NCBI GenBank assembly: GCA_023667385.1
Contig: JAMPAE010000001.1
Span: 1 to 52,833, forward strand
Direction of reading: 5' to 3'
Source: Ruminococcus sp.
GTDB taxonomy: Bacteria > Bacillota > Clostridia > Oscillospirales > Acutalibacteraceae
Length of the DNA stretch: 52,833 nucleotides
Under the pieces are notes generated by a model, which made no database searches, was not told where the DNA came from, and worked only from the letters and a program-made list of their open reading frames with translations. A program made the position numbers and the translations under genes. Of this stretch, positions 172 to 52,604 are shown piece after piece. Position 1 is the first letter of the stretch. Every line of letters begins with the position of its first letter.

Positions 172-195
172 CGTGTACATTTCCGTGTACATTTC
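172..195 (+). promoter_or_regulatory. Tandem 12-bp repeat cgtgtacatttc x2; candidate integrase arm-type sites (left arm)
   Basis: Exact tandem duplication. The same CGTGTACA core is repeated twice with 12-bp spacing at 52753..52772, next to attR. Confidence 0.5.
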
Positions 196-1471
196 AAATC
201 TTGTCAAATTTGGTCATTGATTGCTTCTTCAATTCATCAACGATGGCAATGTAAGGCTTCATCGCTTCAAACTTTGAGTGCCCCGTCCATCGCATTATGA
301 CTTCGGCGGCAATGCCAAGTTGCAAGGCGGTGACAACGAATGTGCGCCGGGCAACGTGTGTTGTTATCAATGCCCATTTCGGCAAGACTTCTTCATGCCG
401 TTGGTTGCCGTTGAAATAAACAATCCTTGTAGGGGTGTCAATCCCGGCAGCTTTGGCAATGTCTTTCAAGTAAAGATTCATTCGCACGTTGCAAGGCACG
501 GGCAAGGCAAGGTCGTTTTTGAACTTGCATTCTTTGTATTTGTCAAGAATTGCCCTTGAATGCTTGTTCAATTCAATCTTTAAGCCGTCAACGGTCTTTT
601 GGGTCACGACATCAATGTGGTTTTCCTTGACATCGCACCGTTTCAACTTTGCGACATCCGAAAACCTTAACCCGGTGTAACAACAAAACAAGAACACATC
701 GCGGGTTTGTTCCAAATGCTTGTCGGATTCCTTGAATGTCATATCGGCAATGCGCTTGACTTCATCTTGGGTCAAATAGATTATTTCCTTTGCGTTGCCG
801 TCCGTGCCTTTCAACTTGGGTCGGAAAGTTTCGTGAACCTTGCCGGAATAATAACCGTGTGCATCCGCCCAACGCAAGAACCACCGAACAAAGGCAAGGT
901 TCTTGGCAATGGTAGTGTTCTTCAATCCCTTTTTCATCAGGAAAGCGACAAATTCTTGCATCTTTGCGTCCGACAAGGTATGAAACGAAATCAAGGGGTC
1001 AAATTCATTCAACCTTGATTTCATCGCCTTAAACTTTTGAAAGGTTGCATCCGTCCATTGGTTTTGCGCCCCCATTGTTTGTGTGAATCGGTCGTAAACC
1101 TGAAAGAACGACAATGAAACGGGGTCTTGAATGACTTCTTCAATCTTTGTGTGCCGTCCGACCATATCATTGAACAATTCCTTGATTTCGCCGGGGTCGG
1201 GAATGCGCTTTTCAAGCAATTCATATCTTGCCATTACTTCATTGATTGCGCCGCGCCATTCATCAATCTTGCGGTTGATAATCGTTGCGTCTTGAAATGA
1301 TGATTTCGCCCTTTGTTCGGCTGCATCCCATTCATCAAGGGGCAAGGACACGCCCAAAGGGAAATCAAGGGGCGTTTTGCCACGCAATGTCACACGCATT
1401 CGGATTGTGCATGAATCTTGATTTTTGCCCCTTTTGTGCGGCAAGAACTTGACCGACCAATTTATTATCAT
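194..1471 (-). CDS. int: Tyrosine recombinase / phage integrase
   Basis: 425 aa. The C-terminal catalytic signature is present: YTGLRFSD (Arg), HVARRTF (H-x-x-R) and GHSKFEAMKPY (His and the Tyr nucleophile). The gene is adjacent to attL. Confidence 0.9.
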   Translation of the reverse strand: MIINWSVKFLPHKRGKNQDSCTIRMRVTLRGKTPLDFPLGVSLPLDEWDAAEQRAKSSFQDATIINRKIDEWRGAINEVMARYELLEKRIPDPGEIKELFNDMVGRHTKIEEVIQDPVSLSFFQVYDRFTQTMGAQNQWTDATFQKFKAMKSRLNEFDPLISFHTLSDAKMQEFVAFLMKKGLKNTTIAKNLAFVRWFLRWADAHGYYSGKVHETFRPKLKGTDGNAKEIIYLTQDEVKRIADMTFKESDKHLEQTRDVFLFCCYTGLRFSDVAKLKRCDVKENHIDVVTQKTVDGLKIELNKHSRAILDKYKECKFKNDLALPVPCNVRMNLYLKDIAKAAGIDTPTRIVYFNGNQRHEEVLPKWALITTHVARRTFVVTALQLGIAAEVIMRWTGHSKFEAMKPYIAIVDELKKQSMTKFDKI

Positions 1472-7361: not shown

Positions 7362-8333
7362 ATGTCCAACGACATTCAGAAACAAAACCCGACCGGGATT
7401 GTGACAACGACCAACCCGGCAACCGTGGGGTTCAACTTCTTTGACCCCGTGCAGTTTGAAACAATGCAACGTGTGTGCAAGATGTTCGCATCATCCGACC
7501 TTGTGCCGGACACATACAAGCCGAAAACCAAACCCATCCCCACCAACGCATCGCCGGAAGCAATCGCCGCGATTCAAGCCGAAAACCGCGCCGCCGAAAA
7601 CAAGGCAATCGCCAATTGCATGATTGCCGTTGAAGTGTCAATGCGCATCGGTGCATCGCCCTTGATGGTCATGCAGAATATGGCGGTTATATACGGTCGC
7701 CCATCGTGGTCGTCAAAATTCCTTATCGCAACGGTCAATTCGTGCGGTCGCTTTGAACCCTTGCAATTCCGTTTCACAAACAAGGGCAACATCGGCAAGG
7801 TTGAATATACCGACTATGTGTGGAACGACCACACACGCCGCAAGGAAGCAACCAAAAAGACCCTTGACGGCACGAACATTGCTAACCTTGAATGTGTCGC
7901 TTATACGACCAAGAAAGGGTCAAAGGACGTGTTGGAATCCGCGCCCGTGTCAATCCGTCTTGCCATTGATGAAAGATGGTACACCAAAGACGGGTCAAAG
8001 TGGCAGACAATGCCGCGTCAAATGCTGATGTATCGCGCCGCGTCAATGTGGACAAACGCTTATGCTCCCGAACTTTCAATGGGTATGCGCACGGTTGAAG
8101 AACAACAAGACATCGTGGATGTTGAGTTTGAGGAAATCCGCGACACCCCGACCGAAAGCAAAACAAAGGAAGAAGCGGTGAAAACAACCATCGGTTTTGA
8201 TGATGCAACGCCCGCCGAACCATCAACCGCCGTCAATCAGGAAGCCGCCCCGAAAGAAACGGTTGACACCGAAACCGGGGAAGTGACCGCCGCGCCCGCC
8301 GAAGATTCTTCAAACGACAATCCCGGATTCTGA
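7362..8333 (+). CDS. recT: RecT-family single-strand annealing protein
   Basis: RecT-like core (MFASSDLVPDTYK...NCMIAVEVSMRIGASPLMVMQNMAVIYGRPSWS) with an acidic C-terminal tail. Confidence 0.75.
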   Translation: MSNDIQKQNPTGIVTTTNPATVGFNFFDPVQFETMQRVCKMFASSDLVPDTYKPKTKPIPTNASPEAIAAIQAENRAAENKAIANCMIAVEVSMRIGASPLMVMQNMAVIYGRPSWSSKFLIATVNSCGRFEPLQFRFTNKGNIGKVEYTDYVWNDHTRRKEATKKTLDGTNIANLECVAYTTKKGSKDVLESAPVSIRLAIDERWYTKDGSKWQTMPRQMLMYRAASMWTNAYAPELSMGMRTVEEQQDIVDVEFEEIRDTPTESKTKEEAVKTTIGFDDATPAEPSTAVNQEAAPKETVDTETGEVTAAPAEDSSNDNPGF

Positions 8334-9105: not shown

Positions 9106-9735
9106 ATGAAAAAGTATGTAGTTTTCAGCCGCGCACAAGGACGCGAAGATGGGTTGATTCTATCAGGTTTTGACCCCGAAGAAGTGCAAAGTAATTTTCT
9201 TGACTATGTTAACGACTTCAACGATGATGTTGTTGATGATGCAGACAAGGTTTCAATCTTTGACTATGAATTGGCAGTTGAAGAAGTCAAGGACGTGAAC
9301 GAAGAAATTACCGACTATCAGACAGCCCGCGCATATCTTGGTGGCAAGCCGAACTTGCAATTCAAGGTCGCACAACAAGCCGACACAATGACAACCACCG
9401 TGCCGACCCTTGAAGATGTCACACGCCTTGTTCAATCCCTGAATCCGTCACACGTTCAGGCATTGCAAGCCTTGAACGAACTGTTCACAATCGCGCAAGC
9501 ATGGAACAAAGCCGACAACTTTATGCCGGACTATTCCAACCGCAATCAAGACAAATGGTTTCCGTGGTTTGTCTATGATGCCGATGCTGCGGGCTTCGTG
9601 TCTGCGAATACGTATGGTGCGCCCTCGTATACGTATGCGAGTCTCGGTTCTCGGCTTTGCTTCAAAACCGCAAATCGCGCCCGTCAATTCGGCAAGCAAT
9701 TCATTGACCTTTGGAACAAGGTATTGATGTTTTAA
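9106..9735 (+). CDS. Small acidic protein carrying a remote DGR variable repeat (VR2) near its C-terminus
   Basis: 209 aa with no signal peptide and a very acidic N-terminal half. The C-terminal AAGFVSANTYGAPSYTYASLGSRLCF parallels the VR1 peptide AGFVAAHAYTAPTSTSAIFGSRLCY. Confidence 0.7.
   Translation: MKKYVVFSRAQGREDGLILSGFDPEEVQSNFLDYVNDFNDDVVDDADKVSIFDYELAVEEVKDVNEEITDYQTARAYLGGKPNLQFKVAQQADTMTTTVPTLEDVTRLVQSLNPSHVQALQALNELFTIAQAWNKADNFMPDYSNRNQDKWFPWFVYDADAAGFVSANTYGAPSYTYASLGSRLCFKTANRARQFGKQFIDLWNKVLMF
9586..9662 (+). repeat. DGR variable repeat 2 (remote VR)
   Basis: Gapless 77-nt alignment to TR 48635..48711. There are 14 mismatches, all at TR adenines, and none at the 55 non-A positions. 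It ends in cggttctcggctttgc, identical to the VR1 3' end. Confidence 0.75.
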
Positions 9736-10617: not shown

Positions 10618-11322
10618 ATGAAAGACAAGACATATTATTTTCCGCACGATTATGGGGCAAGGAACGACCCCAAGTTGCAAGGAATCCTTGTTGAGCATGG
10701 AGCGGCGGGCATCGGTGCTTTTTGGTGCATCATTGAGCAGCTTTATGAACAAGGGGGTGCAATGCCCTTGAAGTCGTGCAAAAGCATTGCATTTGCTTTG
10801 CATATTGATTGCAAGGTAGTGGAAAGCATCGTGAATGACTTTGGCTTGTTTGGCAATGATGGCGAAACCTTTTGGTCTGAATCCGTCAACAAGCGAATGG
10901 CAAAGCGCACGGCGATAACCGAAAAGCGCAAAGCCGCCGCCGCAAGCCGTTGGCAATCCTTGCCCGATATGCAAATGCAATCCGAAAGCATTGCAAATGT
11001 AGTGCAACCCGAATCCAAAATAAAAGAAAAGAAAGAAAAAGAAACATCATCTAACGATGATGGTAATGGGGCAAAACCGCAATCACGGTTTGTGCCGCCG
11101 ACCCTTGAACAAGTGAAAGCATATATCCTTGAAAAAGGTTATTCAATGGACGGCGAAAGGTTCATTGACTTCTACGAAAGCAAGGGTTGGATGGTGGGCA
11201 AAAACAAGATGAAAGATTGGAAAGCCGCCGTGCGCAATTGGGCAAGGGAAGAAAGCCAACGCCCCACCGCCCGGAAGCCTCAAACAAGCAAATCACGAAA
11301 CGTCAATGATGAATGGCAATGA
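10618..11322 (+). CDS. Replication initiation protein (DUF4373 / Lin1244-like N-terminal domain plus a DnaD-like C-terminal domain)
   Basis: YYFPHDYGARNDPKLQGILVEHGAAGIGAFWCIIEQLYE lies at the N-terminus and FIDFYESKGWMVGKNKMKDWKAAVRNWA at the C-terminus. The track start at 10591 is a TTG. Confidence 0.65.
   Translation: MKDKTYYFPHDYGARNDPKLQGILVEHGAAGIGAFWCIIEQLYEQGGAMPLKSCKSIAFALHIDCKVVESIVNDFGLFGNDGETFWSESVNKRMAKRTAITEKRKAAAASRWQSLPDMQMQSESIANVVQPESKIKEKKEKETSSNDDGNGAKPQSRFVPPTLEQVKAYILEKGYSMDGERFIDFYESKGWMVGKNKMKDWKAAVRNWAREESQRPTARKPQTSKSRNVNDEWQ
10776..11043. repeat. Ori-like block inside the replication gene: TGCA-motif iterons followed by an A-rich tract
   Basis: gtgcaaaagcattgcatttgctttgcatattgattgcaagg is at 10776..10816. 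atgcaaatgcaat is at 10969..10981. gcattgcaaatgtagtgcaa is at 10988..11007 and is an exact 20-mer copy of 2097..2116. The tract aaaataaaagaaaagaaagaaaaagaaa follows. Confidence 0.45.
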
Positions 11323-16442: not shown

Positions 16443-17024
16443 ATGAAGAACTTAAACCAACTATCAACCGACATTCACGACAACGCCGTGAAGCACGGAT
16501 TTTGGGAGAATCACCCGACATCCGAACACTTCTTGATGCTTGTGATTTCCGAGGTTGCCGAAATTGTGGAAGCCGACCGCAAAGGCAATTCGGCGGTAAT
16601 AAATCACATTCGCAAGCAAAAGAACCTTGCAAACGCCCAAAAGTGCAGAATGAGCGAAGAAGTGGACAACGCCCCCGACTTTGAAACGGCATTCGTTGAA
16701 AACATCAAAGACACGATGGAAGATGAAATGGCAGATGTTGTCATTCGGCTTCTTGACCTTGCCGGAAGTCTTGGGATGGACTTTGAACGCCTTGCACCTA
16801 TGCGTTACCACCGTGCGTTTGACCGCTTTTCATTCACAGAAAATGCCTTTGCCTTGTGCAAGGGGTTGTGCCGTGACAACATCAACATTTTCAAACGCAT
16901 TCAATTCGGCATTCACTATGTAACCGGGTGGGCGAAAAGTCAGGGCGTGAACCTTGAATGGCATATCAACGCCAAGATGCGCTTCAATGCGACCCGTCCG
17001 AAGAAGCACGGCAAAGCATATTGA
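16443..17024 (+). CDS. MazG-like nucleotide pyrophosphohydrolase
   Basis: LMLVISEVAEIVEADRKG and EMADVVIRLLDLAGSLGMD give the EExxE/D-type motifs of all-alpha NTP-PPases. Confidence 0.6.
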   Translation: MKNLNQLSTDIHDNAVKHGFWENHPTSEHFLMLVISEVAEIVEADRKGNSAVINHIRKQKNLANAQKCRMSEEVDNAPDFETAFVENIKDTMEDEMADVVIRLLDLAGSLGMDFERLAPMRYHRAFDRFSFTENAFALCKGLCRDNINIFKRIQFGIHYVTGWAKSQGVNLEWHINAKMRFNATRPKKHGKAY

Positions 17025-17249
17025 ATGCAAGTGCATAACAAAAGCAATGCAAATGCAATGGCACGAATGAAATATCTTGTTATCGCAACCGAACCGACAA
17101 CCGGGGAAAGAGTGGCATTTTACACGGATTGGTTTGATGCCGACAATCACTTCAACGGCGATGCCGATATGGTTGCGATTGACTTAATCCATCATCTTGT
17201 CACCTTTGATGGCGAAACGTGGCAAGACATTGAACAAGACCATCTTTAA
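17025..17249 (+). CDS. Hypothetical small protein
   Basis: 74-aa ORF. Its 5' end contains TGCA motifs (17026..17057). Confidence 0.4.
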   Translation: MQVHNKSNANAMARMKYLVIATEPTTGERVAFYTDWFDADNHFNGDADMVAIDLIHHLVTFDGETWQDIEQDHL

Positions 17250-23185: not shown

Positions 23186-23348
23186 ACCCGCCGCCCCGGA
23201 ATACACTTGCCGCGATTGCCGACATTCGGAGAATTGGCACAATGTCGGGGCAAACGGTCAATTCATATTCTGCAACTGCAAATTCCAAAAGTGGTGCAAA
23301 TTCCTTGACCACGATTATTGCAACAACTTTCAAAAGCGTTTATCCTGA
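23166..23348 (+). CDS. Cys-rich small protein (zinc-ribbon-like)
   Basis: 60 aa: MAKKASKPAAPEYTCRDCRHSENWH...FCNCKFQKWCKFLDHDYC. Its stop overlaps the MuF ATG. The longer track ORF 22932..23348 overlaps the lipoprotein gene. Confidence 0.4.
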   Translation: MAKKASKPAAPEYTCRDCRHSENWHNVGANGQFIFCNCKFQKWCKFLDHDYCNNFQKRLS

Positions 23349-26300
23349 TGGCAAAGAAGAAGCAACAACCAAAGGCGACCCGCTTTTCAATACAAGGCTT
23401 TGACTTGAACCATTTCCGCGCCACCGAACAATATGCGGCAATGGTGCAAGCCTTGTTTGACCGTGCCACCCTTTTGATGTCGCAAGCTGCAACACGCGGC
23501 ACGATTGACCCCGACAAACCCTTTTCGTTTGATGATTACCCAGCATTAAAAGCCGAATTGCAAAAGGTGGCATCACAACTTGCGTCACAACTGACCACAA
23601 CGATTGAAAAGGGGTCGCGCAATCAATGGTTGTTCGCTTGTGATAAGAATGACGGATTCATTGATTCAATAATGGACACGTCAAAGGTATCAAAGGCGCG
23701 GTTGAAGAAGATGCAAGACCGCAATTTGGACGCATTGCGCACGTTTCAAGACCGCAAGGTGGGCGGCATGAACTTGTCGCAACGTGTGTGGCGTTATGTC
23801 GGACAATACAAAGAACAACTTGAATCCGCACTTGATGTCGGACTTGGAGAGGGGCGCAGCGCACAAGAACTTGCCCGTGATGTAAAGAAGAACTTGCGCG
23901 AACCTGACCGTTTGTTTCGCCGTGTGCGTGACAAGCGGGGCAACCTTGTGTTGTCAAAGGCTGCAAGGGCATATCATCCGGGGCAAGGTGTTTATCGGTC
24001 AAGCGTGAAGAATGCCCAACGTCTTACAAGGTCGGAAATCAATATGGCTTATCGTGAAAGCGACTTTTTGCGGTGGCAACAACTTGATTTCGTTGTCGGC
24101 TTTGAAATAAAGCGGTCTAATTGGCACGATGAGGACGGACACGAATATAAATGCAAGTTGTGTGACCGTCTGCAAGGGCGTTATCCCAAGTCTTTCAAGT
24201 TCAAAGGATGGCATCCGCAATGTCGGTGTTATGCCGTGCCGATTCTGATGGATGAAGAAACCTTTGATGAAAACGAATTGGGCGACCTCAAAGCAGCCTT
24301 GCGCGGCACGGAGTACAAGAAGAAGCAAGCAAGATATGTTGTTACCGATGTGCCGGACGCATTCAAAGAATGGGTTGAGGAAAACAAAGACACCGTTTCC
24401 GGGTGGAGTTCAACGCCGTATTTCATACAAGACAACTTTGTTGATGGCGACATCACAAAGGGGTTGAAGATAGATTTGCCGACAGTTGAACCCGATATGC
24501 CCACAATCCCCACATTCAAGGCAACAACCCCCCAAGAAATTAAAGATTTCATTCTTGCCAACATTGCCGATGATTGCACCCTTGAAATCGGCAAAAATGA
24601 CCTTGATTTGTGGAATGATATTGTCAATCAACTAAACCAACGCATTCAACAATTCGGATTGCCCAAGTTTAGCCGTATTGGAAAACCCGCGAATCGGCAA
24701 GCGGAAGCATCTTGGGATGGGAATAACAACGGATTTAATCTGAATATCCCTTATTTACGCAATCAGACCGCAATTGCGAGGGCTGAAAAGTGGAAGAAAA
24801 AGGGTGTTTTCTATTCGCATACCTATGAGGATAAAGAAGATTATGTTCGTGCGGTAATTGACCACGAAATCGGACATTGTTTATTGTCGCAATTCGGCTT
24901 CAAGTCTGATGCAATAAGCACGATGGGCAAAGCGGGTAAATCAATAATGTTGAATGGCAAACCTTTCAATGAAATTAACGATGTGTTGGGTTATTATGCT
25001 TCAACCGATGTTGATGAATACTTTGCCGAAGCATTTGCGATGTTTGCCGGAAAGAACCGTGACAAGTTGGGCGAATACACAAGGTCAATGATGGAAAGAT
25101 TCGTTGAAAAGGTCAAGAAAAAGACCGGGCAAGACCCATTCGCCGCCCCCGGTAAGTCAGAACCGAAGATTGACCCGGTGCAAGCGCAGCTTGACGCACT
25201 TATGCCGTCCGTTGAAGCGGCAAGGAAGATTTGTCAGGAATGGGGAATTGTAATGCAAGAAAAACGCCTTAATGAAGCGGTTGCAGAAAAAGACATTAAG
25301 ACAATCAATGGTTGCATTGCTGCAATCACAAGTATTGACACGAAGTACACAACCGAAATGTCGGCATTCTTTGCCGATTGCACACACTTGATTAAGGAAA
25401 TGAACGAATCCGGCGGGGATTTCAAGACCATCATTGCCGAATTAACCCAATACATGACCAATCTTTCAAAGGACAAAAAGATGTGGTCGGATGGTGCTTC
25501 ATTCTATCAATCCGAAATTCAAAAGGCAAAGGACAAGTTGAAGCAATATAAGGCATCGCCGGAAGCATCAATGACGGCATCGCAAAAATCCTTGCTTTCC
25601 GATGTTCGTATAACAATAAGACAAGCCGAAGAATGGGGAATCAGCACAACCAAAATTAAAGGTCTGATGCAACAATTCATTGACCACCCCAATTTTGATT
25701 GGCGCACACAACCCGAATCGGAGAATTACGAAAGATTCCTTGAAAACGAATATTTTGCTTTGGAGGGTAAAATAACCCAAGTCCGAAAGAAGATGGAACA
25801 ATTCTTGACCGAAGCAAGGGCATTGATTAAAGAAGCCGACAAATTGGGTCTTGATACCGATGCAAACCGAAACGATTTAAGCCGATATGTGTTCGCGTTG
25901 TCGGGGTCTGATAAGGCTTACACTTGGGGGCAATTCAAGAATGAAATCAAAAAGATTTACAACGCCCTAAAAGTGACCATTGATGAAACCGTCAAGAAGA
26001 ATGAAGAAGAAGCGGCAAGGAAATCTTCAATGGAACATGAAGCAACATTCACGGGCGAACCACACAAAGCCGTGAAAATTGATTATAAGACGGATTCCGA
26101 AGTTGATGCCACATTTGCAGAGATAAATAAGGACTTTACCGTTGAACGATGGTTTGAAAATGGCGATTTGCGATTGACCCCAACGAATGAACGCGGGGTT
26201 AATGGCTTCACATATATGGATGGGCGTATTTCGTTAAAACCCGATAGATTGCGACTTGTTAAGTCTGCATTGGGCAAAATAGGACAAAAAAAGACATCCG

Positions 26301-26851
26301 AAATCACGTTTGCCGAAGCTGATGCAATGGCAACCTTTTGGCACGAAATATGCCACAATCGCAATACGTCCGGCAATATGCGCCTAACGAAAATGGAAAC
26401 AAGGTTTATGGAGTTGGCAAATGAATTTGTGGCACGACATTCTTTGCCTGAATTTTATGCGAAATTGGGCGCAAGTCATGTTCCGCACCCTGAATTTCAG
26501 ACCGACCGAAATTCCACGAATTATAATGAAATGGTCACGAATTATGATTTTGTTATCACAAAATTGGGATTGTCGCATTCCAAGACCCTTGCATCAGTCC
26601 GCAAGCACTTATTTTCGGGTGCATACAATGACCAACAAACGGGATTGGGTCAAGGCTTGCTTGATGGTGGTTTGAAATATGCCAACGGAAAAGCGGTCAA
26701 AAAATCCGATTTGAATGCCTTGTTGAAATTGATAAGGACAACCGAAAGTGACGTAAGAACATACGACCCCAAACAAGGTAAATTTGTGATTACAAAGACC
26801 CGTCAAGACATCATTGTTGAATGGCTAAAAGAAAAAGGGTTCATTGTATAA
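23348..26851 (+). CDS. Head morphogenesis protein (SPP1 gp7 / Mu F family) fused to a large polyvalent C-terminal region with two zincin-like HExxH modules
   Basis: The gp7/MuF core ends in KGWHPQCRCYAVP. HEIGH is at 24863..24877 with a downstream EYFAEAF at 25016. HEICH is at 26342..26356 with a downstream ELANEF. The track start at 23318 is a TTG. Confidence 0.75.
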   Translation: MAKKKQQPKATRFSIQGFDLNHFRATEQYAAMVQALFDRATLLMSQAATRGTIDPDKPFSFDDYPALKAELQKVASQLASQLTTTIEKGSRNQWLFACDKNDGFIDSIMDTSKVSKARLKKMQDRNLDALRTFQDRKVGGMNLSQRVWRYVGQYKEQLESALDVGLGEGRSAQELARDVKKNLREPDRLFRRVRDKRGNLVLSKAARAYHPGQGVYRSSVKNAQRLTRSEINMAYRESDFLRWQQLDFVVGFEIKRSNWHDEDGHEYKCKLCDRLQGRYPKSFKFKGWHPQCRCYAVPILMDEETFDENELGDLKAALRGTEYKKKQARYVVTDVPDAFKEWVEENKDTVSGWSSTPYFIQDNFVDGDITKGLKIDLPTVEPDMPTIPTFKATTPQEIKDFILANIADDCTLEIGKNDLDLWNDIVNQLNQRIQQFGLPKFSRIGKPANRQAEASWDGNNNGFNLNIPYLRNQTAIARAEKWKKKGVFYSHTYEDKEDYVRAVIDHEIGHCLLSQFGFKSDAISTMGKAGKSIMLNGKPFNEINDVLGYYASTDVDEYFAEAFAMFAGKNRDKLGEYTRSMMERFVEKVKKKTGQDPFAAPGKSEPKIDPVQAQLDALMPSVEAARKICQEWGIVMQEKRLNEAVAEKDIKTINGCIAAITSIDTKYTTEMSAFFADCTHLIKEMNESGGDFKTIIAELTQYMTNLSKDKKMWSDGASFYQSEIQKAKDKLKQYKASPEASMTASQKSLLSDVRITIRQAEEWGISTTKIKGLMQQFIDHPNFDWRTQPESENYERFLENEYFALEGKITQVRKKMEQFLTEARALIKEADKLGLDTDANRNDLSRYVFALSGSDKAYTWGQFKNEIKKIYNALKVTIDETVKKNEEEAARKSSMEHEATFTGEPHKAVKIDYKTDSEVDATFAEINKDFTVERWFENGDLRLTPTNERGVNGFTYMDGRISLKPDRLRLVKSALGKIGQKKTSEITFAEADAMATFWHEICHNRNTSGNMRLTKMETRFMELANEFVARHSLPEFYAKLGASHVPHPEFQTDRNSTNYNEMVTNYDFVITKLGLSHSKTLASVRKHLFSGAYNDQQTGLGQGLLDGGLKYANGKAVKKSDLNALLKLIRTTESDVRTYDPKQGKFVITKTRQDIIVEWLKEKGFIV

Positions 26852-30618: not shown

Positions 30619-30758
30619 TGTGTTATTTTGGAAATAACAAACTTTTTCGGCAAAAATTTTGCTTTTGCATTGCATTTTCTTTGCTTGTGCAGTGCAAAAT
30701 GTGAATAACTTGGGGATAACATTGTTGAACAATATAAATGTATTACTATAAAACACAC

Positions 30759-42431: not shown

Positions 42432-45400
42432 TAACAAAGCCAAACGGAAACCGTGTGCCGATGCAATCCCGGCGCACGGCAACCGATGTCACCGCCGCAA
42501 AGCAATCTTGGGTGCTTAATGGCGATGATACGGTTGACATCACCGTGAAATCCCCCTTTCGGCAGACATACGACATCGGCGACAAAATAACCATATTCGG
42601 GCGCGATTACACCCTTAACCGATTATCCAAACCCAAGAAAACCGGGATGCACGAATTTGAATATTCGTTGCAGTTTGAGGGGGTGCAATACGACCTTTTG
42701 CGGGCAAGTTATGACGTGACCATTGACACCACCAACAACGAATTGCAAGACGTTCAAGGCGATTCCTTGACGGGCGATTTGCGGCGGTTCTTGACCGTTC
42801 TTGTCGCCAATGCAAACCGCGTGTTCCCCGGCAAATGGGCGTTGGGCGTGTGTCCTGAAACGAAAAGCGACATCACAAAGACTTTCGGCGAATCAGATAA
42901 TTGCCTTTCGGTGCTTCAAAGCATCTTGGGGGAATTTGATGAATCGTATTTCTTTGACATCCAAACAATCGGTGGTGTTTACACCATCAACATAAGGTCA
43001 ACATCGCAAACCTTGCCGTTTACCCTTGAATTTGGCAAGGGTAACGGACTTTATATGTTGAGCCGCGACAATGTTTCATCCTCAAACATCGTGACCCGCC
43101 TTAAAGTCTATGGCAGCGCATCAAACATCACGTCAAAATATCGTGCCGACCGCCTTTGTTTACCGGGAAAGACAAAGGGGCAATCATACATTGAGGATGC
43201 CCAAGCGGTGGCGCGTTACGGCATCTTTGAGGGGCGCAAGCATTTTGACAACATCAAACCGACATTCACGGGTCACGTTCAGGCGGTCGGGGATTCCGTG
43301 TGTGAATTTATAGACCCCACGATTTCTTTTGACCTTAACGCCGTTGAAGCCGATGGCAAAACAACCGTCTATTTGATTGACGGTGTTTCCGCAAAGGTGC
43401 ATTTCAATTCGGGCAACCTTGCCGGATATGAATTTGAAATCGCCAAATATGACCATGCCACACACAAGGTCACATTGCGCAAATTCACTGATGACCGGGG
43501 CGATGTCTTTCCGTCCGAAACATCGGCGGCATTTCAATTCAGGGCAAGCGATGGCACATATTCGGGCGATGAATACAAGATTGTTGACATTGCCTTGCCG
43601 CAAGAACTTGTTGACAAAGCCGAAGCCGAACTTTTGGAAGCGGGGCAAAAGTATTATGAGCAAAACAGCCAACCCAAAGTGCAGTATTCTTTGAGTGTCA
43701 CAAAGGCATTCATTGAAAAGAACTTTGCCACCGATGCCGGGGTTGTCAACGTCTTTGTTCCGGGCGATTATGTGCGTGTTAAGGATGATGATATTGGCGT
43801 TGACAAAGCCGTGCGCATCAAGTCAATCACACGCAACGTCCTTGACCCTTACGATTATTCGCTTAACCTTTCGGACACGGTGACAACCACCGTGACCAAC
43901 CGTGTGTTGTCTGACCTGATAGACATTGACAAGATTATTGAAATCAACAATCTTAAAGACCCCGCCCGCGCCCGCGCAAATTGGCGGTCAAGTCGTGAAG
44001 TTCTTGACATGGTATTTGACCCGGAGGGGGATTATTACACCGATAAAATCAAGCCAAATTCCATTGATACCCTTGCTTTGTCGGTCGGGGCAAAGTCAAT
44101 GCAATTCGGATTGACAAACACGGTCTTTCAACCCAATTACAACGGCAACCCCAAGTTAATGAGGTGGCAAGGCGGCGTGTTGACCCATTACACCATCAAT
44201 GAAGATTCGGCGGTGTCTTGGGTTCTTGGAGATGGTCAAATCACATTGTCGCCCGATTCACAACCGTTTTACATTTATGCACGTTGTCACCGTGTATCAT
44301 CAGCCGGACAAATCGCTATAACAACACGTCAATATCGCGTTGATGAAGACCCCAATTATTATTGGTTTTGGATTGGCGTTATAAATTCGGTTGACCCCGA
44401 CATCAAGGCACGTTCAATCGCCTTGACTTATGGGTTCACGATGATAAACGGGCGGTTCATCAAGACCGGGCGCATTGAATCAGCCGATGGCGAAACATAC
44501 TTTGATTTGGACAATTCCGAAATCGGCGGTCGCATCGTGTTCAATTCCAACGGTCAGGAAAAGACCCTTGAAGAATTGGGGCAAGAAGCACTTGAAAGCA
44601 AGGATTTCATCAATAACACCTTGCCGGGGTTGTTGTCTGAATTGCAATCGCAACTTGACGGTGTTGTGGAACAATGGTTTTATTCCGTTGACCCGTTGCC
44701 CCTTAACACCGCCCCGCAAGCCACCGCCAATGAACCCGCAAGCGATTGGACAACAAGTGAAGATAAAGAAAAACATCTTGGCGACTTGTATTATAACACC
44801 GAAACGGGCAAGGTTTGGCGATATGTGAAGATTCTATGGTCGCCCGCACCGAACTATGCCCGCGCAACTCGCTATGTGTGGAAAGAACTTGAAGATACCG
44901 AATTGGCACAAGCATTGGCATTGGCGCAAGATGCCCTTGATGCAGCCAACACAAAGGCACGAATCTTTGTTGACACCCCTTATCCCCCTTATTCGGTCGG
45001 CGACTTATGGGTGCAAGGCGCAAGCGGCGACATATACCGATGCAAGACCGCCCGCGATTCAGGTTCTTTCACGTCAAGCGATTGGGAAAAGGCTTCAAAA
45101 TACACCGATGATTCGGCGTTGAATGCGTTTATCAACAATAACTTTGCCAACACCGTGTCAAACCTTGAAACACAAATTGATGGCAAAGTTGAAACGTGGT
45201 TTCAGGTATCAGACCCGGCGACATCATGGACAACTAATGAATTAAAACAAATCCATGTCGGGGATATGTGGTATAATACTAATACAAAGGAATTAAAGTA
45301 TTACAAGCGTTTAACCAACAACCAACCTTATACGTTTGGATGGCAACTTGTTGAGGATGCCAAAGCCATTGCAGCTTATGAAGCGGCATCACAAGCACAA

Positions 45401-46462
45401 GACACCGCCGATGGCAAACGTCAAGTGTTCGTTTCAACGCCTTATCCCCCTTATGACATCGGCGACCTTTGGGTTGACGGAAAGGAATTGCGCCGTTGCA
45501 TCACCGCAAAAGCAAAGGGGCAATCTTACAGTGTCAACGATTGGGTTATTGCAGTGTATTATGATAATACAAAGACAACCATTGACGGCGGCATTGTCAC
45601 GTCCGGCACAATCCAAGTGGCGGGCGATAATGCAAGCATCCTTGCCGGAATGACCGGACAAGGCACGGCGGCAACGTCAATCCGCTTTTGGGCGGGTGCA
45701 TCTTTTGAAAACCGCGCCACCGCACCTTATCGTGTATTGCAAGATGGGTCGTTTTATGCGACAAAAGCCAACATCACGGGAACAATCAATGCAAATGCGG
45801 GTTCAATCGGTGGTTTCAATATATCATCCGGCAAAATCGGTTATGGCACATCATCAGAACAAGACACAACGCACGGGTTGGCATTGTTAAGCAGCTTCAT
45901 TCGCTTTTACAATGGCGACCAAAGAACGCTTGTTGGATGCCTTAATTCGTTGGGTTATCCTTATAATGGATTGTTTGAGTTGAACGGAAGCATGGGAACG
46001 GCATTGGAAGTTCACCATAAGTTCAAGAACACGACCGATTCCGACCTTGAACATTGGTATTTGCCGAAAGCACTTGCGGTTTATGGCAATCAATATAATC
46101 TTGGTAAGGTGGCATTCTTGGAAAAGGGATATATCGGACAAATATATTCCGATATTATTCAAAGTTATTTTGCCATAACCCACAAATATCATTTCACATC
46201 AAATCCAAATAGTCGCACATCTTTGTACTTGCCGACAAAAACAACTATCAACAATAGAACCGGGGATGTTCCCGTGATTTTTGATGTTGAGATTGTGTGT
46301 GATTGGAATATGGCAAATACCGTTGTGTTGACATCGCAAACCGGGGCGCAAATCTATAATCAGAATGGCGGCACGGTTTCAACCGTTGATTTGGCAAAAG
46401 GTGATTCAATCAATTTACGCTATTATAACGGCGGTTGGGTTATTATAAATCGTTATAATTAA
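42416..46462 (+). CDS. Tail tip / host-specificity protein (Tal-like) with an internal tandem duplication
   Basis: 1348 aa, in the position after Dit. Two paralogous units of about 130-170 aa lie at 44657..45178 and 45179..45553. Confidence 0.65.
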   Translation: MEQIIITKPNGNRVPMQSRRTATDVTAAKQSWVLNGDDTVDITVKSPFRQTYDIGDKITIFGRDYTLNRLSKPKKTGMHEFEYSLQFEGVQYDLLRASYDVTIDTTNNELQDVQGDSLTGDLRRFLTVLVANANRVFPGKWALGVCPETKSDITKTFGESDNCLSVLQSILGEFDESYFFDIQTIGGVYTINIRSTSQTLPFTLEFGKGNGLYMLSRDNVSSSNIVTRLKVYGSASNITSKYRADRLCLPGKTKGQSYIEDAQAVARYGIFEGRKHFDNIKPTFTGHVQAVGDSVCEFIDPTISFDLNAVEADGKTTVYLIDGVSAKVHFNSGNLAGYEFEIAKYDHATHKVTLRKFTDDRGDVFPSETSAAFQFRASDGTYSGDEYKIVDIALPQELVDKAEAELLEAGQKYYEQNSQPKVQYSLSVTKAFIEKNFATDAGVVNVFVPGDYVRVKDDDIGVDKAVRIKSITRNVLDPYDYSLNLSDTVTTTVTNRVLSDLIDIDKIIEINNLKDPARARANWRSSREVLDMVFDPEGDYYTDKIKPNSIDTLALSVGAKSMQFGLTNTVFQPNYNGNPKLMRWQGGVLTHYTINEDSAVSWVLGDGQITLSPDSQPFYIYARCHRVSSAGQIAITTRQYRVDEDPNYYWFWIGVINSVDPDIKARSIALTYGFTMINGRFIKTGRIESADGETYFDLDNSEIGGRIVFNSNGQEKTLEELGQEALESKDFINNTLPGLLSELQSQLDGVVEQWFYSVDPLPLNTAPQATANEPASDWTTSEDKEKHLGDLYYNTETGKVWRYVKILWSPAPNYARATRYVWKELEDTELAQALALAQDALDAANTKARIFVDTPYPPYSVGDLWVQGASGDIYRCKTARDSGSFTSSDWEKASKYTDDSALNAFINNNFANTVSNLETQIDGKVETWFQVSDPATSWTTNELKQIHVGDMWYNTNTKELKYYKRLTNNQPYTFGWQLVEDAKAIAAYEAASQAQDTADGKRQVFVSTPYPPYDIGDLWVDGKELRRCITAKAKGQSYSVNDWVIAVYYDNTKTTIDGGIVTSGTIQVAGDNASILAGMTGQGTAATSIRFWAGASFENRATAPYRVLQDGSFYATKANITGTINANAGSIGGFNISSGKIGYGTSSEQDTTHGLALLSSFIRFYNGDQRTLVGCLNSLGYPYNGLFELNGSMGTALEVHHKFKNTTDSDLEHWYLPKALAVYGNQYNLGKVAFLEKGYIGQIYSDIIQSYFAITHKYHFTSNPNSRTSLYLPTKTTINNRTGDVPVIFDVEIVCDWNMANTVVLTSQTGAQIYNQNGGTVSTVDLAKGDSINLRYYNGGWVIINRYN

Positions 46463-47210: not shown

Positions 47211-48527
47211 ATGGGTCTTATGATTGGAGTGGGCAACACAAAACCCACATTCGCTTATGACTATTATTACGGCATTGAATGGGATAAGACCGTTTCAAAT
47301 CCTATTCCAACCCGTGTCGGCAAAGATGAACTTCACAAGTCTTTGCCCGTGCAGTCACTTATGCGCCGTTGCACTTTGAAAGATGATGGCGCGGTCAATT
47401 ACTATCTTCACGCCAACGATTCATCAAAGCGTGACAACGGAGCAGCCGCCGACCTGACGGGCGCACACGGTCAATTTATGGTTGAATTGCCGGATGCTTA
47501 TATGCGCTTTGAGATGGACGGCAACAAGAATCGTGCGCTTATGAGCGACCGACCCTTGCCCGGATTTATCAAGTGGCGCAAAGACTACGTTTCAGCCGAT
47601 GAAGCGTGTGTGCAGCGTTCCACAACCACCCTTTGCGCCGTTGTCAACAACGACCCCGATTTCAGGGGTGGCGGCAATCAAACCGCTTATGATGATACCG
47701 ACCACACTTTGTTGGGTCGCCCGGCAACGTCAATCAGCTTGACAAACTTTCGTGCATACGCCCGCAAGCGTGGGTCGGTGTCATGGAATTGCAATCTTTA
47801 TCAGACACACCGCAAGTTGTGGTGGTTCTTTGCGATTGAATATTGCAATTTCAATTCGCAAGCCGCGTTCAATGCCGAATTGACCGCTGACGGATTCCAT
47901 CAAGGTGGACTTGGCGCGGGTGTCACAACCCTTAACGGCACAAAGTGGAACACTTGGAACGGTTACAATCCTTTCATTCCTTGCGGTCACACCCTTTCGT
48001 TGGGCAATCACACGGGAACGGTGGATTACACCTTACCAAGCGGATATGACACAACAACCCTTGTCGTTGCCGTGCCGTCTTATCGCGGCGTGACAAATCC
48101 TTTTGGTCATATATGGAAATGGACTGATGGTTGCCTTTGCAACATTCAATCCGATGCCGCCGGGGGATTATCCGAATTTTACGTTTGTGACGACCCGACA
48201 CACTTTGCATCAACCATCGGCGCGGAATATCAGTTGCGCGGCAACTTGCCCCGAAAAGAGGGATATGTAAAAGCCTTGATTCTTGGCGAACACGGCGAAA
48301 TAATGCCCCTTGAAGTCGGTGCAAGCACAACCACCTATTTCTGCGACTACTTTTATACTAACATACCCGCAAGTGGTGAAGCCATACGCGGCGTTTTGTT
48401 CGGCGGTTATGCGTATTATGGTGCGTGTGCAGGCTTCGTGGCTGCGCATGCGTATACTGCGCCCACGTCTACGTCTGCGATTTTCGGTTCTCGGCTTTGC
48501 TATTACCCAATCGAAACCGCCGCGTAA
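47211..48527 (+). CDS. DGR target protein (receptor-binding candidate, C-terminal C-type-lectin/FGE-like variable domain)
   Basis: 438 aa. The C-terminus GVLFGGYAYYGACAGFVAAHAYTAPTSTSAIFGSRLCYY is encoded by VR1. Confidence 0.85.
   Translation: MGLMIGVGNTKPTFAYDYYYGIEWDKTVSNPIPTRVGKDELHKSLPVQSLMRRCTLKDDGAVNYYLHANDSSKRDNGAAADLTGAHGQFMVELPDAYMRFEMDGNKNRALMSDRPLPGFIKWRKDYVSADEACVQRSTTTLCAVVNNDPDFRGGGNQTAYDDTDHTLLGRPATSISLTNFRAYARKRGSVSWNCNLYQTHRKLWWFFAIEYCNFNSQAAFNAELTADGFHQGGLGAGVTTLNGTKWNTWNGYNPFIPCGHTLSLGNHTGTVDYTLPSGYDTTTLVVAVPSYRGVTNPFGHIWKWTDGCLCNIQSDAAGGLSEFYVCDDPTHFASTIGAEYQLRGNLPRKEGYVKALILGEHGEIMPLEVGASTTTYFCDYFYTNIPASGEAIRGVLFGGYAYYGACAGFVAAHAYTAPTSTSAIFGSRLCYYPIETAA
48387..48501 (+). 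repeat. DGR variable repeat 1 (VR1)
   Basis: Gapless 115-nt alignment to TR 48596..48710. There are 20 mismatches. Nineteen fall at the 29 TR adenines and one is T48650 to G. Confidence 0.9.
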
Positions 48528-48595
48528 AACGTAAATCGTTCCCCGAAAGCATTTTAAGCGAGTTTTGAAATGAAGATAAAAGGGTTGTCAGGTGT

Positions 48596-48710
48596 CGCGG
48601 CGTTTTGTTCAGCGGTAATGCGAATAATGGTGCGAATGCAGGCTTCGTGTATGCGAATACGAATAATGCGCCCACGAATACGAATGCGAATATCGGTTCT
48701 CAGCTATGCT
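48596..48710 (+). repeat. DGR template repeat (TR)
   Basis: Non-coding copy of the VR. In the VR frame it contains 10 AAT codons (RGVLFSGNANNGANAGFVYANTNNAPTNTNANIGSQLC). It lies between the target gene and the RT gene. Confidence 0.9.
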
Positions 48711-48856
48711 TGTAAAAATATAGTTGCATCACCTGAAACCTTGCCACAAAAACATCCCATTCCGGGGGTGTATGAGTGGGGCAACCCACGGCAAAAAATA
48801 AATTATGTTGAACGACTTTGGTAGGGCTGCCGAAAAAGTCTATTATTCAAGCAAAC

Positions 48857-50071
48857 ATGAAGCGTTTGAACAACCTTTTTGAAAAGGTCATAAGCCTTGA
48901 CAATTTGCGCCTTGCCGATGAAAAGGCAAGGAAAGGCAAGTTGCGGTCTTATGGTGTCCGACTTCACGACAAGAACCGTGAAGCCAACATTCTTGCGCTG
49001 CATGAACAATTAAAGAACGGAACATTCAAAACATCGCCTTATCACGTTTTCACAATCTACGAACCCAAAGAAAGGTTAATTTATCGTTTGCCGTACTTTC
49101 CCGACCGCATATTGCATCACGCGATTATGAACGTGCTTGAACCCATTTGGGTGTCTATATTCACAAAGGACACTTATTCTTGCATCAAGAATCGCGGGAT
49201 TCATGCGTGTGCCAAATCGGTGCGCCGTGCATTGCGAGAGGATAAGGACGGCACACGGTATTGCCTGAAAATTGATGTCCGCAAGTTTTATCCGTCAATC
49301 CGTCACGACATCTTGAAAGCCATCATCCGGCGTAAAATCAAAGATGCCCGGTTGCTTGCGCTTCTTGATGAAATCATTGATTCTGTCAACAACACGACCA
49401 CACAATCAACGAAACCCAAGCGCAAAAGAAGCAAAGGCAGACCGATGGGGTCGCGTTACTTGTGCATGAGCAAGCAATCGCACAAGATGGGCGAAGCTGA
49501 TGCAGATGAAGCCAACGAGCCGGAAGAAGCGGAAGAACCCGAAACAAGGGGCGTTCCAATCGGCAATTACCTATCACAATACTTTGCCAACCTTGTCTTG
49601 GCTTACTTTGACCATTGGTTGAAAGAAGTGATGGGCGTTAAGTATTATTGGCGATATGCCGATGATATTGTGATTCTTGCCGCCGACAAACAATTCTTGC
49701 ACGACCTATTGCACGAAATCCGCAAATATTTTGCGACCCTTGATTTGCACGTCAAACGCAATTATCAGGTGTTCCCGGTTGAAAGCCGTGGGATTGACTT
49801 CTTGGGTTATGTATTTTACCACACCCACACACGCTTGCGCAAGAGCATAAAGCAACGGTTGTGCCGCCGGGTGGCAAGCCTTAACAAGCGGAAAGAGCAG
49901 ATGCCCAAAGAAGCGTATCGCCAACAAATATGCAGTTGGTGGGGTTGGTGCAAATACTGCAATTCAATAAATCTTTTCAACAAACTAAAAGCAACGATGC
50001 CTTATGAAATCAGCTTTAATCGCCCCAAATGCGCATTACGACATGACGCATGGGCAACCCAAACCGATTGA
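48857..50071 (+). CDS. DGR reverse transcriptase
   Basis: The RT motifs include YADD at 49655..49666, and IGNYLSQYFAN has the DGR-typical SQ signature. The track start at 48818 is a TTG, so the ATG at 48857 (MKRLNNLFEKV) is preferred. Confidence 0.9.
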   Translation: MKRLNNLFEKVISLDNLRLADEKARKGKLRSYGVRLHDKNREANILALHEQLKNGTFKTSPYHVFTIYEPKERLIYRLPYFPDRILHHAIMNVLEPIWVSIFTKDTYSCIKNRGIHACAKSVRRALREDKDGTRYCLKIDVRKFYPSIRHDILKAIIRRKIKDARLLALLDEIIDSVNNTTTQSTKPKRKRSKGRPMGSRYLCMSKQSHKMGEADADEANEPEEAEEPETRGVPIGNYLSQYFANLVLAYFDHWLKEVMGVKYYWRYADDIVILAADKQFLHDLLHEIRKYFATLDLHVKRNYQVFPVESRGIDFLGYVFYHTHTRLRKSIKQRLCRRVASLNKRKEQMPKEAYRQQICSWWGWCKYCNSINLFNKLKATMPYEISFNRPKCALRHDAWATQTD

Positions 50072-51992: not shown

Positions 51993-52604
51993 ATGAAAAG
52001 ATTCTTAAAGACTATCATTCCCGCCATTGTGTTCATCATCGCTTTGGCATCGTGCGCGACAACGAAAAAGGTTGAAGCAACAACCCATAAGATTCGCGCC
52101 GACACAACACACGTTGAAGAACACAAAGAATTGGCGACCACCACAACCATTGACACGACCCGGACGGAACAAGGCAAAGTGACAATCACGGAAATTGTGT
52201 TTGAAACATCGCCGTGTTCCGCGCCGGACACGACCACCGCCGACAAGGGGCAACCACCGATAAGGGCGCGACCCGAAACCCCGGTGGCATCGGTTGACTT
52301 GCCCGGCATCGGACTTGTTCAAGGCAATATCAAGTCCATTCGGCAAACGGTCATTGAAAATAATGTTGAAGTCAAGGGGCAAAGCACGGATTCCAACAAG
52401 CAAACGGAATCCAAATGCAATGCAAATGCAACACGGACGGAAGAAAACAATACCGTCAAAGAGCAACCCGCACCCGACCCCAACCGATGGAAATATATAT
52501 CATTCATCATCGCCGCCGCCTTGATTGTTCTTTTATACCTGAAACGTGTGCCGATTTTGGAGTGGGTAAAAAGAATTTTATCAGGATTGCGCCGGATATT
52601 CTGA
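51993..52604 (+). CDS. Lipoprotein with a C-terminal TM helix; unimolecular spanin candidate
   Basis: The N-terminal MKRFLKTIIPAIVFIIALASC contains a lipobox. The C-terminus has WKYISFIIAAALIVLLYL. It is the last gene of the lysis cassette. Confidence 0.5.
   Translation: MKRFLKTIIPAIVFIIALASCATTKKVEATTHKIRADTTHVEEHKELATTTTIDTTRTEQGKVTITEIVFETSPCSAPDTTTADKGQPPIRARPETPVASVDLPGIGLVQGNIKSIRQTVIENNVEVKGQSTDSNKQTESKCNANATRTEENNTVKEQPAPDPNRWKYISFIIAAALIVLLYLKRVPILEWVKRILSGLRRIF

Follow-up and report, generated by a model that had tools for sequence, protein, structure and literature searches.

The window analyzed here is a stretch of 52,833 nt from contig JAMPAE010000001.1, and it contains a diversity-generating retroelement (DGR). 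The element is best read as a recently active DGR with two targets and an accessory-free layout of target gene, template repeat (TR), and reverse transcriptase (RT) gene, carried by a temperate Bacteroidales phage. We give this reading a probability of about 0.93. The TR has a first variable repeat (VR1) in the adjacent tail protein gene (target 1) and a second one (VR2) in a small gene of the early region (target 2). Coordinates refer to the window, and all elements are on the plus strand unless stated otherwise (Table 1). A first-pass annotation had described a complete DGR at 47211-50071, at the end of the tail module. Its place in the genome was borne out, with the order being tape measure, 1348-aa tail protein, DGR, and lysis genes. 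A target, the TR, and the RT are all present in that interval, but the second target (9106-9735) lies outside it and no Avd was found.

The highest-ranking family of direct repeats in the window consists of 9547-9661, 48387-48501, and 48596-48710. The last two, VR1 and the TR, form an ungapped collinear alignment of 115 nt, and their homology ends abruptly at both flanks. Of their 20 differences, 19 coincide with one of the 29 adenines in the TR (hypergeometric p = 1.5e-13). These adenines are replaced in VR1 by T (10 sites), C (5 sites), or G (4 sites). VR1 is in frame near the 3' end of the open reading frame (ORF) at 47211-48527 and makes up its last 38 codons but 8. The TR contains 10 AAT codons when read in the VR frame. 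Pairwise alignment reproduced what the first-pass annotation had reported of this pair, including its length, collinearity, adenine bias, and AAT codons. The mismatches are adenine-specific. An even spread over the four bases, the outcome named there as speaking against a DGR, was not seen.

The RT matches Pfam RVT_1 (1e-18) and the phage RT family phrog_1423 (3e-128). Its best match among solved structures is 8ub7_A (E 5.8e-48), which is Brt of Bordetella phage BPP-1 (100% identity, 166 aa). Group II intron RTs (7e-20) and retron RTs (about 1e-3) match far less well, so the grouping with them that had been raised as a possible objection was not seen by similarity. The RT scores below the cutoffs of all NCBIfam models of group II, retron, and Drt RTs. 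It scored 120.7 bits against the group II model TIGR04416 (cutoff, 300), and the retron and defense models (Drt2/3/4 and retron St85) gave 72 versus 200, 50 versus 390, and 48 versus 235. No group II intron RNA match was found in 48300-49000. The closest RTs in GenBank phage records are DGR RTs of crAss-like phages (e.g., cr55_1 and crAssphage LMMB; PMC7290462), with 48 to 52% identity over 93% of the length. Those phages differ in belonging to another phage order and in having podovirus-like genomes of about 100 kb. By similarity, the RT is assigned to the DGR clade. The YADD and IGNYLSQ motifs noted earlier were recovered (as RYADDIV and PIGNYLSQ) and fit the YxDD and motif-4 ([I/V]GxxxSQ) signatures of DGR RTs.

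Table 1. Features of the DGR and its carrier in the window
Feature	Coordinates	Strand	Description
TR	48596-48710	+	Non-coding; 29 adenines; adjoins the RT gene, 147 nt upstream of its ATG
VR1	48387-48501	+	Hypermutated tract at about 48402-48483
Target gene 1	47211-48527	+	438-aa tail protein with VR1 at the C terminus
DGR RT	48857-50071	+	404 aa; RYADDIV and PIGNYLSQ motifs
RT insertion (~50 aa)	49388-49543	+	Basic KPKRKRSKGR, then an acidic run; between LLDEIIDS and GVPIGNYLSQ
Target gene 2	9106-9735	+	209-aa protein; early recombination/replication region, 39 kb from the cassette
VR2	9586-9661	+	Matches TR 48635-48710 (3' 76 nt); putative IMH at 9644-9661
Putative IMH of VR1	48484-48501	+	TCGGTTCTCGGCTTTGCT; 18 nt, same in VR1 and VR2
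IMH* (TR counterpart)	48693-48710	+	TCGGTTCTCAGCTATGCT
Structured spacer RNA	48707-48853	+	Between TR and RT; six helices with covariation
P1	48707-12/48848-53	+	TR end TGCTTG pairs with CAAGCA before the RT start
P2	48741-45/48790-94	+	Spacer helix
P2a	48753-58/48765-70	+	Spacer helix
P2b	48776-80/48785-89	+	Spacer helix
P3	48814-19/48835-40	+	Spacer helix
P3a	48824-26/48829-31	+	Spacer helix
Integrase	194-1471	-	Phage genome module
11-nt-period motif clusters	1768-1809, 1929-1968, 2086-2132, 10784-11023, 17022-17064, 30656-30697, 52400-52431	both	See text

The evidence for recent activity comes from near-identical genomes. Exact-protein look-ups of the RT and four other window proteins returned no record, and a megablast search of the cassette against GenBank phages gave no match. 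Near-identical genomes were located in two NCBI assemblies through an 88-aa protein encoded upstream of target 1. One of them, L227 (JAMPGB010000009.1, 52,855 nt), is 99.4% identical to the window, and the other, L228, is 98.8% identical. The TR of L227 is identical to that of the window, and the TR of L228 differs by 1 nt. VR1 differs from the TR at 20 positions in L227 and at 10 in L228, all of them adenines, and both VR1s are unlike that of the window. Across 4.3 kb, L227 and the window differ at 24 positions, 18 of which are within VR1 and none within the TR. The same TR beside different VR1s in genomes that are 98.8 to 99.4% identical indicates that the element was recently active.

The layout is also conserved among more distant relatives. 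At least 598 relatives of the RT are present in IMG/VR. The best 80 loci were taken, and 66 of these had enough upstream sequence for analysis. A VR was found in 65 of the 66. All 65 have a target with a VR, a gap of about 90 nt, a TR, a spacer of about 150 to 180 nt, and an RT, with adenine-biased differences between TR and VR.

Target 1 matches phrog_5302, annotated as a tail protein (E 1e-119). It has 6858 homologues, and several of their 90%-identity clusters contain hundreds of sequence variants. It has no sequence match in Pfam, NCBIfam, or PDB, including in a profile search at E <= 10. The tip of this tail protein, which carries VR1, is presumably receptor-binding.

The second target lies far from the cassette. 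The repeat copy at 9547-9661 resembles the TR only across its 3' 76 nt, and these form VR2. VR2 differs from the TR at 14 positions, all at the 22 adenines of this part (p = 4.7e-10). Target 2 is flanked by genes for SbcC-like and RecT-like proteins and a metal-dependent hydrolase on one side and by replication genes on the other. It matches phrog_11581, a family of unknown function (E 1.2e-18). A match to the tail protein family phrog_5302 is limited to residues 157 to 188, and the 40-aa VR part is the only segment common to the target 1 and target 2 proteins. Target 2 has no signal peptide and no match in Pfam, NCBIfam, or PDB sequence searches. A Foldseek search of the 209-aa model against viral structures gave only uncharacterized proteins with low template modeling scores, the model itself being poor.

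The target 2 family is large and is diversified at one place. It has 4149 homologues in a 90%-identity collection and at least 1697 clusters at 50% identity. Its members are small (110 to 310 aa), the conserved part comprises roughly the last 95 residues, and Pfam scans of the longer members found no fused domains. Their alignment shows one hypervariable patch with sharp limits, AGFVxAxTxxAPSxTxAxxGSRLCF. The rest of the protein is conserved and includes a C-terminal helix after the patch. All eight relatives with an RT and a target 2 homologue on the same contig carry a VR2 that covers the 3' 67 to 75 nt of their own TR, and 100% of its differences are at adenines. Two pairs of near-identical relatives were compared. 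All 11 differences lie inside VR2 in one pair (1400 nt), as do 14 of 15 in the other (1040 nt). The VR1 differences among near-identical genomes and the VR2-confined differences in these pairs indicate that both targets are being rewritten in nature.

It is conceivable, though doubtful, that target 2 is an early-expressed intracellular binding protein rather than a virion protein. If so, one TR would diversify both a receptor-binding tail tip and a cytoplasmic function in host interaction. The latter could be, for example, an inhibitor of variable host defense or exclusion proteins.

The 3' ends of both VRs carry a putative initiation of mutagenic homing (IMH) site, and the TR carries its counterpart, IMH*. 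The two differ at two positions, both TR adenines, so that CAG reads CGG and CTA reads CTT in the VR. The CTT change is synonymous. Both differences are invariant in relatives: CGG stands for CAG in 37/37 VRs and CTT for CTA in every VR examined. In one clade the TR has G at the second of these sites, and the VR nonetheless has T. At the AAT sites all four bases are seen in VRs, whereas the IMH differences are fixed. Because of the fixed differences, the synonymous CTT, and the T that is kept despite a G in the TR, the terminal 18-nt block of the VR does not appear to be copied from the TR. It behaves in these comparisons as a putative IMH opposite an IMH*, an arrangement reported in nearly all DGRs (PMC5758913). 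The 5' limits of the two VRs differ. That of VR1 is the first A-free block of the TR, and that of VR2 is the central block TGC(A/G)GGCTTCGTG. Such differing limits fit a homology-dependent 5' integration, and target-specific 5' boundaries have already been described in DGRs (PMC5758913).

The spacer between TR and RT forms a structured RNA, as covariation shows. A consensus structure was derived from an alignment of the TR 3' end and the spacer from 24 diverse relatives. In its helices, 97.6% of the cells are paired, and compensatory double changes are present in 16 of the 30 pairs. The observed values were not reached in any of 500 column shuffles, and sliding the partners by 1 to 3 columns lowered pairing to 30 to 54%. 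The window spacer scores 20.1 bits (E 0.34) against Rfam RT-17 (RF03020), below the gathering score of 40.4. RT-17 is above threshold in seven more distant relatives (52 to 59% RT identity), with 41.9 to 51.3 bits. The window RNA shares with RT-17 its position upstream of an RT and the elements CCUUGCC...GGCAAAA, UGGUAG...CGAA, and AAGCA (PMC5737381). It differs in that the window clade has two extra covarying hairpins, P2a and P2b, in the loop of the first stem. The window RNA is best described as a derived form of RT-17 into which two hairpins have been inserted. When the RT-1 to RT-19 motifs were described, only RT-10 was tied to a DGR, that of BPP-1, and it was offered as speculation that others might have a place in DGRs too (PMC5737381).

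The same structure bears on the start of the RT. The start codon is most likely ATG 48857 and not TTG 48818, because 48814-48853 belongs to the conserved RNA structure and the relatives align from the ATG. P1, which pairs the last TR bases with bases just before the ATG, supports this start as well. A scan for sigma-70 promoters and terminators around the TR was uninformative, and Bacteroidota promoters are outside the coverage of the tool.

These parts suggest the following course of retrohoming. The TR and the downstream spacer would be transcribed as one RNA. The spacer, whose helices are supported by covariation, folds as a multi-helix RNA of the RT-17 type, and by analogy with the BPP-1 ribonucleoprotein (bioRxiv 10.1101/2023.10.23.563531) it probably positions and primes synthesis of the complementary DNA (cDNA). 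The RT would copy the TR from its 3' end and misincorporate at adenines. The substitution spectra record this outcome, and the enzymology is assumed from family membership. The cDNA would then replace the VR, with a 3' junction at the 18-nt IMH that VR1 and VR2 have in common. This pattern is seen in the repeats, and its function is putative. The two fixed differences between IMH and IMH* may keep the TR from being overwritten. The 5' junction would be set by homology, to judge from its extent, at the first A-free block for VR1 and at the central block for VR2, so that only 76 nt would be rewritten in VR2. The predicted outcome is that the tail protein is diversified at its C-terminal tip in about 20 codons, most of them AAT, and the small early-region protein in about 12 codons near its C terminus.

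The carrier is a temperate Bacteroidales siphovirus-like phage. The window appears to be a complete temperate phage genome, with an integrase, recombination module, terminase, portal, major head protein, tape measure, 1348-aa tail protein, and the DGR. A GH108/PG_binding_3 lysin is encoded after the DGR. Its relatives are Bacteroidales prophages and contigs. One of them comes from the metagenome-assembled genome of the Muribaculaceae-type 'Bacteroidales bacterium M2' (89% RT identity). Others have Prevotella, Bacteroides pyogenes DSM 20611, and Alistipes putredinis DSM 17216 as hosts.

The repeats could instead be relics left when paralogous C-terminal domains duplicated or recombined, with the RT belonging to an unrelated retroelement (a group II intron, retron, or defense RT) and no retrohoming taking place. 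That the two targets share just the VR segment would suit such an origin, as would the weak similarity of the RT to group II, Drt, and retron models, although all of these NCBIfam matches are far below their cutoffs and the match to BPP-1 Brt is 28 orders of magnitude better than that to group II RTs. Relics would not be expected to differ from the TR at adenines in 19/20 and 14/14 cases. The TR is also non-coding and immediately precedes the RT, every relative examined keeps the layout, and the VRs differ among 99%-identical genomes, whereas the TR does not. We give this explanation practically no credence. A narrower doubt concerns VR2, which might be a decaying partial copy of a VR in a small gene and not a functional target. 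Its match to the TR spans only 76 of the 115 nt, and the gene that contains it is of unknown function, in a non-structural region well away from the cassette. Decay does not agree with differences that are all at adenines, with an intact IMH identical to that of VR1, or with a sharply delimited hypervariable patch in a conserved protein frame. The same arrangement occurs in 8/8 relatives and in the cultured phage Versailles described below, and near-identical relatives differ almost exclusively within VR2. We therefore consider decay highly improbable.

It could also be that the DGR is real but inactive in this genome, for example because the RT was disabled by its 50-aa insertion, and that VR1 and VR2 are frozen. 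The insertion splits the alignment with BPP-1 Brt and interrupts the fingers/palm region. The RTs of relatives have 0 to 23 residues at this site, and the long form is shared by the window and L001, its closest relative (89% RT identity). The single non-adenine difference in VR1 could likewise be a point mutation acquired after homing. However, L227 and L228, whose 98.8 to 99.4% identity to the window was measured over the RT region, have RTs of the same length as that of the window, and their VR1s differ while the TR is unchanged or almost so. The insertion-bearing lineage thus appears, from these comparisons, to have diversified very recently. The RT ORF of the window is intact and keeps its catalytic motifs. 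We consider inactivity very unlikely. In an element that lacks Avd, the basic patch of the insertion might contribute to nucleic acid binding, which is speculation.

Several observations weigh against the favored reading of a recently active two-target DGR. The 50-aa insertion in the RT is unusual. Activity in this exact genome is deduced from a comparison between genomes. Accessory proteins (Avd, HRDC, MSL, or CH1) are frequent in DGRs but not universal, and Pfam searches of the flanking ORFs and of 36 window ORFs of 90 to 200 aa detected neither Avd nor any other known one. The missing accessory gene does not exclude membership, because 29% of catalogued DGRs have this accessory-free layout (Architecture A), and an Avd-less lineage, 'Lineage 3', has been noted (PMC5758913). 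No GC-rich inverted repeat follows either VR, with none of at least 6 nt within 100 nt after VR1 and only AT-rich 6-mers after VR2. Such a repeat is found downstream of the IMH in 34% of DGRs and is absent in two thirds (PMC5758913). A C-type-lectin fold was not demonstrated for the targets. They have no Pfam or PDB sequence match, and their AlphaFold2 models, made from shallow alignments, are poor (predicted local distance difference test scores of 61.6 and 41.4, with the VR regions below 50).

Three TR adenines, all in CAG context (48611, 48640, and 48702), form another such point, as nearly every VR among the relatives has G opposite them. The VR base is G in 77/77 opposite 48611 and in 37/37 opposite 48702, which is within the IMH. 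Opposite 48640 it is G in 53 and A in 2, with no C or T, and VR1 of the window is one of the two A exceptions. Selection for glycine is plausible at 48611. The site at 48640 lies mid-VR and its change is synonymous (GCA/GCG), so protein-level selection cannot explain the G. Nor is the pattern there accounted for by simple random A-to-N mutagenesis.

The sole non-adenine difference between VR1 and the TR is G48441 in VR1 against T48650 in the TR, which changes the codon TAT to GCT. The first-pass annotation had reported this difference and the T retained by VR2 correctly, but its view that the change is unusual did not hold. Non-A-to-N substitutions are present in 23% of catalogued DGRs (PMC5758913), and the identical TAT-to-GCT change recurs independently in two unrelated relatives (L001/L002 and L017), whose VRs are otherwise different. 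L227 and L228 both have T at this site, so the change is recent in the lineage of the window. Substitution spectra were taken from the TR/VR1 pairs of loci L001-L080 and L147-L228 and the window. In the 132 unique pairs, 53 of 7325 non-A sites are substituted. Most of these substitutions are transversions (T to G, 24; G to T, 10). The position just 5' of a TR adenine is overrepresented among them (25/53, 47%, versus 26% expected; p = 8e-4). A difference of this non-A kind is ordinary for DGRs, and the transversion bias is notable. Mismatch extension after misincorporation was considered as a source of these changes. It has no specific support, because the neighboring A is mutated in 15/25 cases, about the background rate.

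The prototype for comparison is the BPP-1 DGR (mtd-avd-TR-brt). The window DGR resembles it in its homologous RT, adenine-specific TR/VR differences, VR at the 3' end of a tail gene, IMH/IMH* logic at the 3' end, and structured RNA between TR and RT (RT-10 in BPP-1; PMC5737381). It differs in lacking Avd and a GC-rich hairpin after the IMH, in using AAT rather than AAC codons, and in having a spacer RNA like that of the RT-17 family. It also has a second, non-adjacent target and the 50-aa RT insertion, and its target 1 has no detectable sequence similarity to Mtd. In gene order and in the absence of an accessory gene, it is like the Architecture A1 DGRs (target-TR-RT; Wu et al. 2018, PMC5758913). 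It also resembles catalogued phage DGRs with non-adjacent targets in having a second target less than 50 kb from the RT, differing 5' boundaries, and occasional non-A changes (PMC5758913).

The cultured Bacteroides phage Versailles (ON453897), an induced prophage of B. caecimuris I48 (PMC10197239), has the same synteny. SbcC, RecT, the hydrolase, the small target, and replication genes are followed later by the tail protein, TR, RT, and lysis genes. It has both targets, with 12/13 VR1 differences and 14/14 VR2 differences at A. Its RT is 37.5% identical to that of the window, and its VR2 spans 107 nt of the TR, compared with 76 in the window. The terms 'DGR', 'diversity-generating', and 'reverse transcriptase' are absent from the Versailles paper (PMC10197239). 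The target 2 homologue of Versailles (WAK79127.1; L145:3893-4474; ON453897 10181-10762) is annotated as 'tail protein' on the basis of HHpred against PHROGs. This annotation may be misleading and may reflect just the shared VR segment.

One TR with two VRs in two genes is also found in the Bacuni phages of B. uniformis (PMC8143477) and in the tentaclin phages nd4 and nd12 (PMC10743442). The Bacuni phages have one target distant from the cassette, as in the window, but they have Avd and targets of the DUF1566 type (PMC8143477). The tentaclins are proteins of 570 aa with an N-terminal lectin domain and immunoglobulin domains (PMC10743442). Unlike the targets of both groups, the second target in the window is a protein of about 200 aa from the early region without a known domain.

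The architectural features of the element have all been described previously, namely the accessory-free cassette, distant second target, 5' boundary that depends on the target, IMH/IMH*, occasional non-A changes, and structured spacer. It is one more phage DGR beside the thousands already catalogued in gut Bacteroidales phages. What it contributes is the putative IMH of an Avd-less lineage, defined by comparison alone, and a place for the RT-17 motif, whose function had been left open, in the TR-RT spacer of these DGRs. It also shows phrog_11581 to be a second target that is conserved and actively diversified throughout a broad group of temperate Bacteroidales phages, the cultivable Versailles among them. 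The remaining interest is the role of this small early-region target.

Several further observations were made on the relatives and on the carrier. A sub-clade of relatives (L067, L071, L074, L075, and L079) has an ORF of 111 to 122 aa (MENN..FLVKIKF..) between VR and TR, for example L071:3416-3751. It could be a lineage-specific accessory gene. It was considered as an Avd candidate and rejected, as by its sequence it does not resemble the helical Avd, and it has no homologue in the window. L001 has a tRNA gene on the minus strand (7931-8015), about 2.8 kb downstream of the RT, that may mark the prophage end or attachment site. The window contains clusters of motifs with an 11-nt period (GCAAATGCA / TGCATTTGC). 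Most of these clusters appear to lie between genes, and they could be phage operators, promoters, or iteron-like sites. A 1177-aa head-morphogenesis-like protein (23318-26851) has a further match, to a PHROG with the annotation Bxa ADP-ribosyltransferase (7e-83). The gene for the 1348-aa tail protein contains a 47-nt internal repeat (44966-45012 and 45428-45474; 77% identical), and both copies encode a TPYPPY..GDLW motif.

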